A stretch of DNA of 64,000 bases from Hydrolagus affinis. Lineage: Eukaryota. The position numbers were made by a program, and so were the translations under genes. The notes under the pieces are model-generated. The model saw nothing but the letters and a program-made list of their open reading frames with translations. It was not told the origin of the DNA and ran no database searches. Of the stretch, positions 702 to 27,400 are shown in pieces. Positions within the stretch are counted from its first letter, which is position 1. Each line of letters starts with the position of its first letter. The DNA lies in NCBI GenBank assembly GCA_012026655.1, contig JAAILG010001098.1:1-64000 (forward strand). Reading direction: 5' to 3'.

Positions 702-831
702 TCATGTACGTTTCCAAGCGTCCCTGCCAGCTGGATGAAGAAAGCAGTCAGGGATAGTATGAAACGACTCAATATCTGCAGGGGGAACGACAGCACAGCT
801 CTAAACTGCTTAGCTGTAACTTAACCTGCTA
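702..831 (-). ncRNA. SNORA63: H/ACA snoRNA, SNORA63/E3 family, in RPL35A intron 4
   Basis: Two hairpins (GCAGG...CCTGC; CGTTTC...GAAACG) and an ACA box at 705-707. Blocks GTCGTTCCCCCTGC and CAGGGACGCTTGG match human E3 as recalled. The 3' pocket is complementary to 28S CCAAGCGU-UC-AUAG. Confidence 0.88.
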
Positions 832-1067
832 TTAATAATAATAATCCTTACATCTTTATCTAGAATCCTCAACAATTATAATAAACTGCACACCAGCCAA
901 CCAGCAGGACTTCAATACCTAGTCAAGTAACTTCGCCCAAATCAGTTTACCTCATTTCATGGGCACCCAGCTCAATAGACTTCTTGGGATGAATTAACAT
1001 TAGGGAGGGCATCTGCTATCCAAGGCAAGGGAAAGGCCAGACTCGGTTGTAAAATCAGTAACCTATA

Positions 1068-1378
1068 GGGTAATAGTTAAGAGCACTCGCCTCGCGAGTG
1101 AGAGGATCTGGGTTCAAATCCTGGTAGGAGGAAACGTTGGCAAAGTTTTCTTACTCCAAATGCCTATGTTCACCTAACAGTGAATAGGAACCCGGGTACT
1201 AGTCGATCGATGGATCAAATTTCTGGGGCTAAAAATCCCTTCAAAATAAATCATTTGGTCACTCAATCTACAACCGCTTGTGGGATTCCGCTGTTCACAA
1301 TTGGCTGCTGCATTCCAAAATATATGGTCAATTCTCTTTACTCTATATTCTGTGAAGCGCTTTGTGGCGTCTCAAAGA
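1068..1378 (+). mobile_element. Diverged tRNA-derived SINE
   Basis: Box B GGTTCAAATCC, core ttggctgctgc, and tail ctgtgaagcgctttg shared with the other SINE copies. Confidence 0.7.
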
Positions 1379-1570
1379 TATACTTTGATTGGGTCACAAG
1401 CAAATAGCTGCTCACAGAGATATTGCAATGGGTAACCAGTGCTCTTGCATCATAAATTAACACACGTGACTGAAATTAGTAAAGAACCTCCTCCGAATCC
1501 AGCACAAAGAGACAAGGGAGAATATTCCCCTTTGAATGTTTTTGTCACAATAGCTTTGAAATCCACTCAC

Positions 1571-4500
1571 CACCCGGATTCTGTGTCCGATGGCCTTTGC
1601 GGGAAGGTTGCTTCTGAACTTGGCGCGGACCATTCCGCTGTTGCCATGAGCACGCGTTACCTTACCCCAGATGACACGAGTCTTGTTTGGTTTACCACCA
1701 GGGGTAACCGTGTTACTGTGAAAATGGAAACAATACTCAACAGGAGACAGCTCAAATCCCTTAATTAAGTTAACCTTGGTTATCCTGTTACTGACCATAC
1801 TCTAAAAAGAAAGGGAGTTGTCGCTGTCTCGAAGTGAGATTACAGAACAGGCTGCTGGAAACATTGTTGGTCTCCAAGGGTCCTGCCAACTGGAGGAGGA
1901 AAGCAGGCGGGGACAGTATGAAACAATTCAATCTCTGCAGACCACTTATCTGCTGAGCTGCAACTTAACCTGTAAACATCTAGTAAGTAAGCGTATTTTG
2001 CTTGTCAGAAGCTATTGCACCCAACAGTACTCAAGTAACAGTGCTAAGCGCTCTGGGACGCTAACCTGTGAGCAGGGCGCTAGGTGAATCAAGTTATATA
2101 AAGCAAGTCAGCCATTTATTTACACCAGCAGATGTATTACACAATACCAGCAGGCAGCAAACTGTTACTTCATGCTGGATCCCAAATATGATGTTCCCCT
2201 CAATGAAAAACTAAAAGATGGACGCGTTATATCATAGATATGACCATGTCTATTTGCGGACACAATATTCACACCTGCAGTAGGAAGTAGCCGTGGGTGG
2301 ATAAACTCACCCCCAGACATTTTGGTACAAAACGCAACCACGATTACGCCTGTTCCAAAACCAGTGATGCGAGGGCCGACTGTACACACGGTACAATCTG
2401 AGGCGTTCCATCGCTACAGAGAACAGTAGGGTCATGGAATATATACTCACTTCTTTGCTTTGTAGACGTAAGCACACTTCTTGCCCAAGTAGAAGTCGGT
2501 TTCATTGCGAGAGTACACGCCCTCAATCTTCAGGAGGGCGGTGTGTTCCCTCTGGTTGCGGAGGCCGCGCTTGTAGCCGCTAAACACAGCTTTGGACCAT
2601 AGTCTGCAGGAGGAGGGTAACATACAATCAACCCTGGATTCATCCTCAACAAACACACACATGAAAAGGCAGCATCGTCACCAATTCATATGCATTTCTA
2701 CCGCAACAGACGCAAGCTCTGGAGGGGGAACTACAGCAGTTACTCAATGTGAATAGAGTTGGGTCTACATACGGGCCCAAGGAAATGTTTAAAAATCCTT
2801 TTGGTTTCGGGCCCGGTGCTGGTTAGGGTTGAATTTCAGAAACTTGGGGAGTCCGTTTGTTACGGTCAGGTTTACTGTATGCTAATCCTTGCATTTGATA
2901 TTGTGCCTTTTTTTTTTGTCAGGCAGGTCTGTAACATAGTGTCTTCCTTATCACTTCAGTGAAACATCTCAAATAAGTTTTTTTTAATGTAAAATGTATT
3001 CACTATTTGTAGGTAAACCTGCACATGTAGCATACAGATGTTTTCAGTTGGGTTATTTTTGAGGCGACAGCTATATGGTGAACGCATTAAAGCATTGTTT
3101 ATTCCCAAGCGTCCCTGCCAGCTGGAGGAGGAAAGCAGTCAGGGATAGTATGAAACAATTCAATCTCTGCAGGGGGAACGACAGTAGAGCACGTATCTGC
3201 TCGGCTGTAACTTATCCTGCAAACACTAGCAAAGTGTTTTATCACAAACTTTTGCATCAGTGTACAGCAACAGTAAACATACATAAAGCAAATCAGCAGA
3301 AATGTTTAAAACAATGTGTGCGGTATTAAAAGCAAGACAAAGATGAATGAATCAAAGAGAAGGAATCAGGTCTTAAGGAGTAAGGTACCCTCCTCTCCCG
3401 GTGCAAATTACTTGGAACCATAGATTCAATGGGAAACACTTTAACAAAGATATGGGTTAGAATGGAAAGAGAACAGGCCTGTGGGAACAGAGAAGAAAGC
3501 CAAGATCTTACTAAGAAACTATTTCAGGGCTCCGAATACTGACCAACGGAAGTTGATTGCAAGATACCACACATTGATACTAAGCATTTGAGGCAGACGA
3601 ATGAGATAGAACTCGACAAAGGGGAAATTGAAAGTAAGGATGTTGGTAAACTCGTCCCTCAAGATGTTCAACGTGTGGCAGCAAACAAGATGCTGGATGA
3701 TCTAAACCAGTTCAATTTAGATCCTTAGAAGTCACACTCAAACAACAACAACAACAACAAATTACATTTGTGACGCTCTGGATACGCCGCACAAACAGTA
3801 GGTCTGGTTGTTGAAACTTAAAAGTATCAAGAAATAGAGGCCGGGATAAGAGTAATGATCTATGAGAACTAACTAAGAAGCTCATTGGCATAGGAATGTA
3901 GGATAATATGATTTTACAGTACAGTGGCCCACCGGGCCTGTGCCGGCTGTTTGAAAGAGCTACCAACTCCTCCCCGCTTACCCCGACTACAACAACAACA
4001 ACAACATTAAACGTGTATACAGCAGTGCCTTTCACGTCAGGAGGGTGTCCCAGGGCGCTGAACCAGCCCCACTCCCCCGCTCTTACCCCAACTAGTCCCC
4101 ACTCCCAAATGTGATCCCCAAATTATACTTTTAGACACGACTTGCGCCAGAAATTGCACCTGCATCGACAAGTCGGGATATCATTTCCTACAATTCAATA
4201 CAATAGTAAGGATGGGAGTAATGTGCGGTATTATAAATCAGTTGGCGATTAACATGAGAATGTGCAACCACGATCTTTACTGAATGGCGGGGCAGACTTG
4301 AGGGGCTGAATGGCTTACCCCTGCTCCTTATTCTTAAGTAAAGAGTAATCCTTGCATTTTTTGATATCGCGGCTTTTCACATCTTATGGACGCCTCAAAG
4401 CGCTTCACAGAATCCATTATAGAGTGATCTGACTGTATATTTGTGGGTGAAACGCGGCGGCCGATTGTCCACACACAAACAATCGTTTCGAGTGACCAAT

Positions 4501-5132
4501 TTATTATAGTTTCTTATTAGGGATTATTATTAGGTGTGTGTGTGTGTGTATGTTTGTCTGTGTGTGTGTGTGTGCGTCTGTCTGTGTGTGTGTGTGTGTG
4601 TGCACGTGTGGAGTAAGGGTTTGGCCCTCACCTGCCTTGAATTGAACCCCGAGTGTCACGCCTGTAAGGCGAGCGAGTGCTCTCACCCACTGAGCTACAG
4701 GGACCCCCCGCCCCCACAACAGCCTGGCCGACACAAGTGACATCTGCCTGTTCACTTGACTGGGTGGGGACAGGCCTCACACGTTTGGCCGTTTCAATAC
4801 CTGGCGCCTTAAAAAACACCTGATTTTAACAATAAATCCTCCCCCATAAAGATATTCTCACGTTTATATAACCCCCCCCCCCCCACCCCCCTCCACACAC
4901 ACACACACACACAGAGAAGGATCCTCACACATTGAGAAGTTAGCTTGATAGCCAGCCACCAAGGGGAGCTCTGAGGGAGGGGGAGGCCTCGCTTCTGTCT
5001 GGAGGCTGACCTGACACCGGGAGAATTAAAAAGCTTTTGCTGGAAGCCGAACCCTGAGCAAAGCCTGACCCCCCCCGCCCGCCTCCCCCCCACCTCCCCC
5101 CCACCCCCGCCAGATCCTTACCTTCCAGGCAT
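1571..5132 (-). CDS. RPL35A: 60S ribosomal protein L35a (eL33), spliced; last coding exon lies beyond the window start
   Basis: GT-AG coding exons: 5122-5132 (ATGCCTGGAAG, 11 nt), 2451-2603 (153 nt, [50 protein letters not shown]) and 1571-1715 (145 nt, [48 protein letters not shown]). The frame is continuous. The terminal MLYPSRI-type exon was not found in 1-1570. Confidence 0.97.
1862..1975 (-). pseudogene. SNORA63: Degenerate SNORA63/E3 copy in RPL35A intron 3
   Basis: Aligns to the other two copies and keeps ACA (1865-1867). It lacks 15 nt (ggggaacgacagtag on +) of the 5' hairpin and has GACCCTTGG in place of GACGCTTGG in the 3' guide. Confidence 0.75.
3093..3222 (-). ncRNA. SNORA63: H/ACA snoRNA, SNORA63/E3 family, in RPL35A intron 2
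   Basis: Minus strand GCAGGATAAGTTACAG...CTGTCGTTCCCCCTGCAGAGATTGAATTGTTTCATACTATCCCTG...CAGGGACGCTTGGGAATAAACA. ACA lies at 3096-3098, 14 nt from the top of the 3' pocket. Confidence 0.9.
4270..4336 (+). mobile_element. CR1-type LINE 3' end fragment
   Basis: gaatggcggggcagacttgaggggctgaatggcttacccctgctcc. A related inverted piece lies at about 38170-38235. Confidence 0.65.
4346..4708 (-). mobile_element. Full-length tRNA-derived SINE (Deu-domain-like core, L2-like tail, internal CA repeat)
   Basis: Minus head GTAGCTCAGTGGG (box A)...GGTTCAATTC (box B). The core and tail are shared with copies at 24.5, 28.0, 39.7 and 62.2 kb. Confidence 0.85.
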
Positions 5133-5403
5133 CGCGACGGTGCGAGGCTGAGTGGTCTCCAGCGGCGGCTCAACCTGGAGAGAGACAGACAGAGAGAGAG
5201 AGAGAGACACAGGTCAGTCAGGCAGGGCCCGGGCGGCACGATCCATTCAATATCACAGCCATCCGCACCCACGCGGGGCACGGGAGCACAGGTCTCGGGA
5301 CTCTGCACTCCCGAGCAACTATTCCCGTCGCGATGGCGGCCCGGAGCTGGCGGGTTGGACGCTATTTTAACGGGTTTAACCGGCGGCGGCGGCGGCCTCC
5401 GAC

Positions 5404-5434
5404 CTGGGGTAGGATCCAAGATGGACGAAAAGGG
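5404..5434 (-). promoter_or_regulatory. RPL35A: RPL35A non-coding exon 1 with 5'TOP/TCT-type start and YY1-like CCATCTT motif
   Basis: Minus strand reads CCCTTTTCGTCCATCTTGGATCCTACCCCAG|gtcgga within a CpG-rich island. The next exon, 5122-5174, has a ctctccag acceptor. Confidence 0.75.
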
Positions 5435-24400: not shown

Positions 24401-27400
24401 AGGATTGCTGAAACTTGGATTCTAGAAATAAAGAGAGTGAGGATGCAGCGAGATCGCTTCAAACAGAGACTGCTGTAGAGAGTGGTGCACTCACCACTGA
24501 ACAATAATAATAATCCTGGCATTTGATATAGCGCTTTTCACGTCTTCTAGACTGTGTCTCAAAGCGCTTCACAGAATGTACTGTAAAGTGAATTGACTGT
24601 ATATATTTGTGGGCGAAACGCGGCAGCCAATTGCACACAGCAGCGTCGCCCCCCACACACACAGCCATGGACTGAATGACTAAATTATTAATGTTTTTCT
24701 TCCTGAGGGATTATTATCAGCCATGTGGAGTAAGGAAACTTGCCCAAGGTTTTGCCGTGCTGAGAATCGAGCTCAGGTCTCTCGCTTGCAAGTCGAGCGC
24801 TCCAACTACTGAGCTACAAGACTGAGATTATTCCCAACGAGGATCCATTCTCTCTCACACACAGAGGCAGTGCTGTGTCACTGTACACTGATCAAAGCCG
24901 TGTGCTTTACTTACCACTGCTGGGGATGGGACATGGATACTGGGCACGGAGCGAGGTCTCACGTGGTTCGCCAGGTGACAGAGCACCACACCGTCAGTAA
25001 GCGCTGACGCCAGGTTGCGCGGGAGAGAAACCTTCAGCCGCGATTCAATATTCTGCAACAAAGCGGAGAGAAACTTTCACATATCCTGAGATTTTTTTTT
25101 AAAAGATAAATATTACACCTTTATACAGTGCCGGACACAGTGAGGAGAACAAATTTAGTAACTTGGCTGTTGATGAGAGGCCGATTGAGGTGAACAGAGA
25201 GAGAGAGAGAAGACACACTCACATTTGAAGAGCTCTAACGAATTAACGTGAATGACCGGGTAGGGAGAATGGATTGGAAAACACATTGGGCACATCGACG
25301 GGCCTAGTTTCTGCTTTGCACCAAATCCCATTAGCCATTCCGTAGCTCATTACCTTTCGTAACTGCTCTATCACTCTCTCTTCATCATCGTATCGCTTTC
25401 GGTTCTGCAGTAAAGTGTCTCCAGTGTCCTGGCTGGGGACGGCGGAGGAGCAGGCAGACGTAGTCTCATCTGGAAACAACAGGAGAAATTATGTGAAAGA
25501 CCCAATTTCCACAAATAGCTCCCTGTTTACAAGCATCTTCCAACTCGCTTTATTCTGTAGTTTTTTTTAAAAAAACAACAACAAACATGCACTTATATAG
25601 CACCCTCCATGCAGGGCTGAGTCTCAGGGCGCTTACACATATACAGACCAAATCATTATCCATTTTATACAGTGAAATGCTGACTCCTCCAAGTCTCAAT
25701 GTCGAACCAGGCAAACTGGTCACCAACAACAACAACAACTTTGATTTACACAGTGCCCTCCACGCCGGGCGGCGTCTCCAAGCTCTTCAAACCCTGATCA
25801 ACCCTAATAGGACATGGTTCAAGTATTGCACCACTACGAGGAATTCACTGCTCCGTTCTCCTTTCAACGTGGAGCCGGCCTGAGCCGGGAGACACCCCTT
25901 AAATACAGTTGTCACAAGTGGATCCATGCTACACACCCTCCGTGGACCTGATGTGTTCTCTGTTTACACTGGGTGCCTGAAACTGCACACATTTGTCCAA
26001 CTGTCCACCTCCGAAACAGGGTAAGTGACGCAGAACAAATTGGCCTTTTTGTAGAAACCAAACAGTAGCCATGGAGTTCACTGCTTCTGTTGCTCAAGCA
26101 CTGAAAGGCAACATGACCCTAAACACCTAATATACAACTATAACATTTGTCTGAAACATTATGTGAAAAGCGTTATATCAAATGCAAGGATTAATTAACT
26201 ATTTATTCATTTAATCATTCATTTATCTATTTATGTGTGTACATATATATGTGTATTATGCTCAGAATATTCTATCTGACACTCCCGGACAACCGACAAC
26301 AACAATTTGCATTTGTATAGTTAAACCGTGCATTTGATTTTTTTTTACTGCACTCTCTTTTGGTTTAAACCAGTTTCTCCCTCTCTCCTCATTACCTGCT
26401 GGAAATGCACATGCGACATGCCTGTGTATACGTTGCTGCCGTTAAAACTATGGGTTTTTGAGAACTGACTCCCCATGCCAAACCTACCTTTCTTAAGTTC
26501 ACCTCTCATGGCTGCTCTGAAGAGGTAGCTTTCAGGCCGGCACGCGTGTGTGAGCTGTTTGTAAGAAGGGGAAGGAGGACCAGGGTATGGAGGGGAAGGG
26601 TGAGCTGCAGCCAGAGATAGTGTAAGAGAGTGATCAAGATTTTAATAAGATTGAGAAACGGGGTTAATCAATAACCAGTGAAACCAAGAAGTGGACAAAG
26701 AAATGAGATAAAAAAAATATAAACTAGTAAATCACAAACAAACAAACAGAATAATATTGCAATATTAAAACAGAATATAAATGGCATGCAGTATTGGCAT
26801 GGATTAGTTTTACTGTGATGGACAAGCTTTGTGGTGAGAGTGTTTAGGTTTCACATCAGTTAATGATTAGTCAAGTTTATAGGTTTCCAATGTTGTCCAT
26901 GACCACAATACAATGCAGGACAATGGGGGGTGGGGAAACTTAAAAAGGTTAGAAATTCTCAGGCTGATTCACGGAGGGCAGAAATCCCATTTCATTTCTT
27001 TTCCATAAGGAATGATTCTCCCACCCCGAGAATCGCAATACCCCCCTTGTAATGAATGCATGCCATTTTTATAACCAGCAACAAAATTATTTCGCAAGAA
27101 CATAAATGTTGAAAAGTAAAAAAAACAAACAACGCAAGTGCAGTGGAAGCCGGTTAAGACGGACGACACATTGGGGGGGGGGGGCGCGGCTGTATGTCTC
27201 AGCTCGACAGGGGTCCGAGGGTAAATCAAACTACCCCACGTTCCGGGTTAACCCGCATCTGGCTAAAGCGGATTCCACTGTACTTTACTTTTTTTTGACA
27301 ATAGTGTAGCGTCTGGAGGACAAATAAAGTAACGAGGAGTAAACTGAACTTGTTTAAAATCAGAAATGGCAAAATGTTATAATGGGAGCTTTTAATGTTT

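Follow-up and report, generated by a model that had tools for sequence, protein, structure and literature searches.

Copies of the small nucleolar RNA SNORA63 in introns of RPL35A, with further copies at RPS14

The window, a stretch of 64,000 nucleotides (nt) that opens contig C1098 in assembly G000, carries on its minus strand exons of the ribosomal protein gene RPL35A, and introns 2, 3 and 4 of this gene each hold, in the orientation of the host, one copy of SNORA63 (E3), a small nucleolar RNA (snoRNA) of the H/ACA type (Table 1). Based on the evidence below, we consider it very likely that introns 2 and 4 hold intact SNORA63 genes, whose RNAs are likely excised and likely guide the formation of pseudouridine (Psi) at positions 4390 and 4491 of 28S ribosomal RNA (rRNA), and that the copy in intron 3 is broken and probably a pseudogene.

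In a search of the whole genome, Pfam family PF01247 gave two matches, both at the RPL35A locus of the window. Splicing of introns 2 and 3 is seen in a related organism (organism A), where 1204 RNA reads carry the joint 2603/5122 and 1311 reads the joint 1715/2451, the reads coming from about 27% of run X14, a poly(A) single-cell library of the relative. The intron numbering used here rests on a likely non-coding exon 1 at about 5434-5404, read from the sequence, whose junction is absent among the listed read joints. The window lacks the last exon (exon 5). A search pattern for the C-terminal motif matched once, at a candidate terminal exon on contig C76335 that has an acceptor as well as a stop codon and a poly(A) signal, and no SNORA63 copy was found on that contig. 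Because this matching exon lies on a separate contig, we infer that intron 4 spans an assembly gap and joins the window to it.

Table 1. Features of the RPL35A locus, with positions in the window, and the SNORA63 copies at RPS14, with positions in locus L006.
Feature	Position	Strand	Evidence and remarks
SNORA63 copy, RPL35A intron 2, intact	3093..3222	-	Rfam RF00092 94.9 bits; fold z -2.36; ends predicted
Parts of intron-2 copy	5' pocket 3212-3209 + 3180-3174; H box 3166-3160; 3' pocket 3148-3145 + 3112-3105; ACA 3098-3096	-	
SNORA63 copy, RPL35A intron 3, shortened, likely pseudogene	1862..1975	-	Rfam 29.8 bits, E 0.082; fold z -0.33
Parts of intron-3 copy	H box variant 1934-1928; ACA 1867-1865	-	both kept
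SNORA63 copy, RPL35A intron 4, intact	702..831	-	Rfam RF00092 93 bits; fold z -1.92; ends predicted
Parts of intron-4 copy	H box variant ANANNGA 775-769; ACA 707-705	-	guides same as in intron-2 copy
27-nt stretch, RPL35A intron 2	2713..2739	-	23/27 match to SNORA63 5'-pocket strand and hinge; blastn E 0.002
Likely non-coding RPL35A exon 1	5404..5434	-	pyrimidine-rich start resembling a 5' terminal oligopyrimidine (5'TOP) motif; sequence reading only
RPL35A exon 2	5122..5174	-	start codon at 5132; 3' junction supported by reads
RPL35A exon 3	2451..2603	-	PF01247 73.7 bits; PDB eL33 E 2e-27; both junctions in reads
RPL35A exon 4	1571..1715	-	PF01247 67.8 bits; intron-4 donor at 1570 follows
RPS14 SNORA63 copies (G000:C17418)	L006 1000-1127, 1949-2076, 2785-2912	+	89.6-97.2 bits

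The copies in introns 2 and 4 match the Rfam model of the SNORA63 family (RF00092, gathering cut-off 90 bits) over model positions 1-130, at 3095-3222 and 704-831 respectively, and both score above the cut-off with E values of 1.7e-14 and 4.1e-14, too low for chance matches. The intron-3 copy falls below the cut-off with the Rfam model, and reaches 49.9 bits (E about 5e-11) against a covariance model made from the five remaining copies in the genome, which themselves score 139-148 bits against that model; by sequence it is homologous but shortened. The three RPL35A copies are 81-86% identical to each other (85% for the intact pair and 85.6% for the intron-3 and intron-2 copies), and between the two intact copies 19 of 127 columns differ while all four guide strands are unchanged. 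The first-pass annotation had described three equivalent SNORA63/E3 copies in RPL35A that arose by intron-to-intron duplication; the family, the host, the common orientation and the duplication from intron to intron are all borne out, and it is the equivalence that fails, with the Rfam model recovering two copies out of three.

In H/ACA RNAs, the target U is presented in a pocket 14-16 nt from the box. The ACA lies 14 nt past the 3' pocket in all three RPL35A copies, within this range and at the constant offset noticed at first pass, and the H box lies 14 nt from the 5' pocket in both intact copies. In all three the H box has a G at position 6 and reads ANANNGA, so that strict ANANNA is not matched. 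ANANNGA is a recognised form of the box, with a weight of 0.10 in the snoSeeker model, and the idea that the non-strict box is a novelty was rejected for this reason (PMC1636440). For the intron-2 and intron-4 copies the minimum-energy and centroid folds agree on a hairpin-hinge-hairpin structure with open pockets, and only 1 and 8 of 200 shuffled sequences, respectively, fold equally well; the intron-3 copy lacks such a fold, and 68 of its 200 shuffles are as good. The covariation in the basal 3' stem pointed out in the first-pass annotation comes down to one two-sided change (C-G to U-A) among seven pairs, next to two one-sided changes, and is real but thin. Over five copies in the genome 89% of the cells are paired and three pairs change on both sides, a weak signal given so few related rows.

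The guides find their targets in the genome itself. Complements of the four guide strands, combined into a search pattern, matched four copies of 28S ribosomal DNA (rDNA), and the reversed control matched none; a partial search of the genome with the Rfam 28S family had given no match. The two target U's in these copies are 101 nt apart, the same distance as from 4390 to 4491. In five of the six SNORA63 copies in the genome, the 5' pocket pairs with the Psi4491 site over 7+4 base pairs (bp) including one wobble, the 3' pocket pairs with the Psi4390 site over 8+4 bp, and the distance from each pocket to its box is 14 nt. The intron-3 copy has lost the Psi4491 strand, and its Psi4390 guide has one mismatch and one wobble. 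Both U's are marked as pseudouridine in human and Xenopus 28S rRNA, and SNORA63 is assigned to both (in the part of PMC6984369 used here), so that the earlier statement that SNORA63 guides position 4390 is right for one of two sites.

Outside the window, SNORA63 copies were found at one other gene. Genome-wide searches gave at least six copies with blastn (6/6 candidates scored) and at least five matches with Rfam (49 of 49,405 candidates scored), both counts being lower bounds, and the three copies beyond RPL35A all lie on contig C17418 at RPS14, recognised from its first coding exon, all 49 residues of which agree with a PDB uS11. Two of these are intronic, after coding exons 2 and 3, and the third is found some 400 nt beyond the poly(A) signal (L006 2378), so that making it would require read-through or alternative splicing of the transcript. 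Altogether, five of the six copies are intronic and all six are on the host strand. The RPS14 copies are 97.6-98.4% identical, have some upstream flank in common, carry both guides and have a strict ANANNA H box in all three cases; the second has AUA instead of ACA, and the two that were folded are matched in stability by 146 and 81 of 200 shuffles. Their near-identity implies that copying within RPS14 may be recent, or the copies homogenised, and identity to the intact RPL35A copies is 70-75%. Between the poly(A) signal and the third copy, C-box-like and D-box-like motifs stand about 50 nt apart (L006 about 2633-2680), without an Rfam match up to E 1 or a stable fold; they may represent a C/D RNA, either short or decayed, or may have arisen by chance.

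The genes that host SNORA63 or its neighbours in other vertebrates were also inspected. EIF4A2 is complete on contig C13484 (L010, L009), without N and with eIF4A-II as its best PDB match, and according to Rfam its introns hold two SNORD2 and one SNORA81. No SNORA63 was found there with Rfam at E up to 1, the best score with our own model being 8.7 bits with filters off, and neither was SNORA4 at E up to 1, a snoRNA that was not sought elsewhere in the genome and that belongs to the EIF4A2-type SNORD2/SNORA81 cluster in human and Xenopus (PMC6984369, in part). RPLP0, also complete (C10829, L028), likewise has no SNORA63 (own-model best 9.5 bits, filters off), and its introns gave no Rfam snoRNA whatever at E up to 1, while rplp0 of zebrafish lists at least five snoRNAs in the supplementary rows of PMC11880993.

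Smaller features of the RPL35A introns include the 27-nt stretch at 2713-2739, a possible remnant of a fourth SNORA63 copy. None of 500 shuffles reaches the score of its match, for a stretch that was chosen after being seen, and the covariance model did not recover it at E up to 5. There are also tRNA-like matches in the window at 1062-1128 (plus strand, 27.1 bits) and 24752-24823 (minus strand, 46.3 bits), the former lying in intron 4 and resembling the head of a tRNA-derived short interspersed element (SINE).

Compared with previously described systems, the copies reported here belong to a common family with those of human and Xenopus, having two pockets, the 28S targets 4390 and 4491 and an intronic location (PMC6984369, PMC7072173, each in part). 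In human, SNORA63 is paired with EIF4A2 (PMC7072173, in part), and in Xenopus SNORA63a and SNORA63b are found in the SNORD2/SNORA81/SNORA4 cluster, pointing to duplication within a host there too, the host not being named in the rows concerned (PMC6984369, in part). Here, by contrast, the hosts are RPL35A and RPS14, the RPL35A copies use the ANANNGA box, and EIF4A2 is without SNORA63 and SNORA4 at the threshold given above. In zebrafish, four rows carry the SNORA63 label: two lie within rplp0 introns (ENSDARG00000080690, ENSDARG00000082928), a third on chromosome 21 is intergenic in one sheet and inside BX649250.2 in another, the fourth on chromosome 4 is also labelled SNORD33, and none of these rows is at eif4a2 (PMC11880993, supplementary rows). 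The zebrafish case thus resembles ours in having a ribosomal protein host other than EIF4A2 and copies in different introns (rplp0 lists further snoRNAs of 127-129 nt in the same rows), and differs in that other ribosomal protein genes are used here, RPLP0 has no copy and two hosts act in parallel. The first-pass view of RPL35A as host instead of EIF4A2 accordingly stands as far as EIF4A2 lacks the snoRNA, but it was too narrow given the three copies at RPS14, and the EIF4A2 frame was itself incomplete with rplp0 already on record as a different host in a fish (PMC11880993, in part).

Host changes of this type have precedents. SNORA3A shows turnover among ribosomal protein genes (PMC13736004, in part), and 'constrained drift' has been put forward as a general model of host turnover (PMC3511168, in part); as in SNORA3A turnover and SNORA58 migration, the H/ACA guide here keeps to ribosomal protein or broadly expressed hosts while changing the gene (PMC13736004, PMC3511168, each in part). 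The terms SNORA63, RPL35A and sharks each occur zero times in the main text of PMC13736004, whose supplement may list such hosts, and the available part of PMC3511168 mentions neither SNORA63 nor RPL35. The literature covered, which leaves Ensembl, RefSeq, snOPY, RNAcentral and most subscription papers outside its scope, held no report linking SNORA63 to RPL35A or RPS14. A pattern scan of metagenome contigs for copies from other vertebrates gave nine loci, none at the Rfam gathering score, and these were taken as chance.

Intronic H/ACA RNAs assemble with dyskerin, NOP10, NHP2 and GAR1 and are released via splicing, debranching and exonuclease trimming. SNORA63 RNAs would in this way be trimmed out of the spliced RPL35A introns 2 and 4, and the intact copies would likely serve both 28S sites, redundantly with those at RPS14; with five complete guides in the genome, the sixth, in intron 3, would therefore be free to decay. 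As for the history, the guide may have been handed among introns of constitutively expressed translation genes, as in constrained drift, with later intron-to-intron copying inside each host. The identity of 70-75% between hosts points to an old split of two host lineages with later copying within each, so that this genome would retain two long-separated lineages, RPL35A and RPS14, while the guide resides at the EIF4A2 locus in frog and human and in rplp0 in zebrafish.

A 15-nt deletion at 1940/1941 has cost the intron-3 copy the entire 3' strand of its 5' pocket, and one G of the upper 3' stem is lost as well. No 15-nt insertion is listed in the contigs of organism A and a second relative, organism B, and the deletion is hence common to them. 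Compared with the two relatives, none of the 33 substitution sites of intron 3 falls within the 114-nt copy, where 5.2 would be expected (722 nt). The 33 sites are the 36 listed rows minus four (1889, 1907, 1909 and 1914), which arise from the intron-2 copy aligned on its paralogue, plus one (1734), and runs X12 and X13, covering little unique sequence, were left out of the divergence count. The probability of such emptiness is 0.003, or 0.010 with adjacent changes merged, and 0.014 and 0.025 using near flanks only. In organism A, a 4-nt insertion (window 1879-1880) lies within the remaining guide strand; it turns this strand into a 12-nt palindrome, like a template-switch mutation.

Several observations weigh against our interpretation. 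No mature SNORA63 RNA was seen in the poly(A) single-cell libraries of the relative, the only library type examined, and no read pile-up was found at the predicted snoRNA ends, a mature H/ACA RNA being expected to end 3 nt after its ACA, one run having pile-ups only at 1573 and 5063 and the other run none; four reads from the intron-2 copy extend beyond its predicted 3' end and thus represent precursor or intron RNA. In the RPL35A copies the H box has a minority form, whereas the boxes at RPS14 are strict, and because box conservation predicts snoRNA expression (PMC10234308, in part) the RPS14 copies could be the source of most SNORA63 RNA. The 28S copies used for the pairing come from fragments of the assembly and may be rDNA without function. 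Finally, the absence of substitutions in the intron-3 copy (0/33 sites, P 0.003 to 0.025) argues against that copy being a pseudogene.

This last point supports an alternative in which the shortened copy is under selection, either guiding Psi4390 with its one pocket or acting in cis on the splicing of RPL35A. The deletion is common to organisms A and B, both boxes and the 14-nt spacing are kept, and a 6-bp hairpin still precedes the H box. Yet organism A has an insertion in a guide that is already mismatched, the fold is no better than that of shuffles, and the substitution-free run continues 67 nt into the flank, an empty 114-nt window being found somewhere in 27% of random placements, so that we give selection on this copy only a small chance. 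The broadest proposal we can formulate, to which we likewise attach little probability, is that SNORA63 has at least four hosts (EIF4A2, RPLP0, RPL35A and RPS14), with two old host lineages with different H boxes in this genome, and that the intron-3 copy is retained as a one-pocket H/ACA RNA or a splicing element. If this were true, that copy, having lost one guide before three related organisms diverged and shown no substitution afterwards, would be a duplicate changing its job. In the opposite direction, all three RPL35A copies may be silent relics near the end of a hand-over to working RPS14 copies, as could be read from the minority H box in all three, the broken copy, the possible fourth remnant and an apparently recent expansion at RPS14. 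This is very improbable, as the intact copies differ in 19 of 127 columns with unchanged guides and a compensatory change in the basal stem, their folds beat shuffles where those of the two RPS14 copies folded do not, and the 70-75% identity indicates that RPS14 was not recently seeded from RPL35A.

The remaining alternatives concern the origin of the copies. The presence of several copies, in introns that are rich in SINE-like repeats, might suggest a dispersed snoRNA-derived repeat that landed at RPL35A by chance, the platypus snoRTE being an example of such a repeat, and a dispersed high-copy repeat was one of the outcomes that the first-pass annotation named as fatal to its reading. What was found is a small set, at least six copies with blastn and at least five with Rfam, all at two ribosomal protein genes and in sense orientation, with no A-tail after any copy; the repeat reading is already largely refuted and has next to no probability left. 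It is also conceivable, though in our opinion rather unlikely, that jawed vertebrates ancestrally carried SNORA63 in RPL35A (or RPS14) and that its moves to EIF4A2 and rplp0 came later. Divergence among the RPL35A copies is considerable (81-86% identity), and the genome, that of a fish according to host DNA in a run from fish gut, is probably from a cartilaginous one, judging by its repeat types, but with four hosts over four sampled taxa the direction cannot be polarised, and rpl35a and rps14 occur zero times in the part of the zebrafish supplement available (PMC11880993). Intact and likely active SNORA63 genes in RPL35A introns 2 and 4, next to a broken copy in intron 3, are the interpretation that we retain.

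On this interpretation, RPL35A and RPS14 are newly recognised hosts of a snoRNA already known to be mobile, i.e. a new address and not a new kind of system, and understanding of how H/ACA guides act is unchanged. Automatic Rfam annotation would find, or nearly find, five of the six copies (89.6-97.2 bits), and Rfam-based pipelines would probably call them SNORA63. The SNORA63 family gains two host genes and offers a compact case of a conserved rRNA guide that is kept while its address changes. Within a single genome, old copies that have diverged stand beside a broken one and a young set of near-identical copies, each separable by sequence in small-RNA reads, and together they serve as a warning that the host gene is an unsafe basis for snoRNA orthology.

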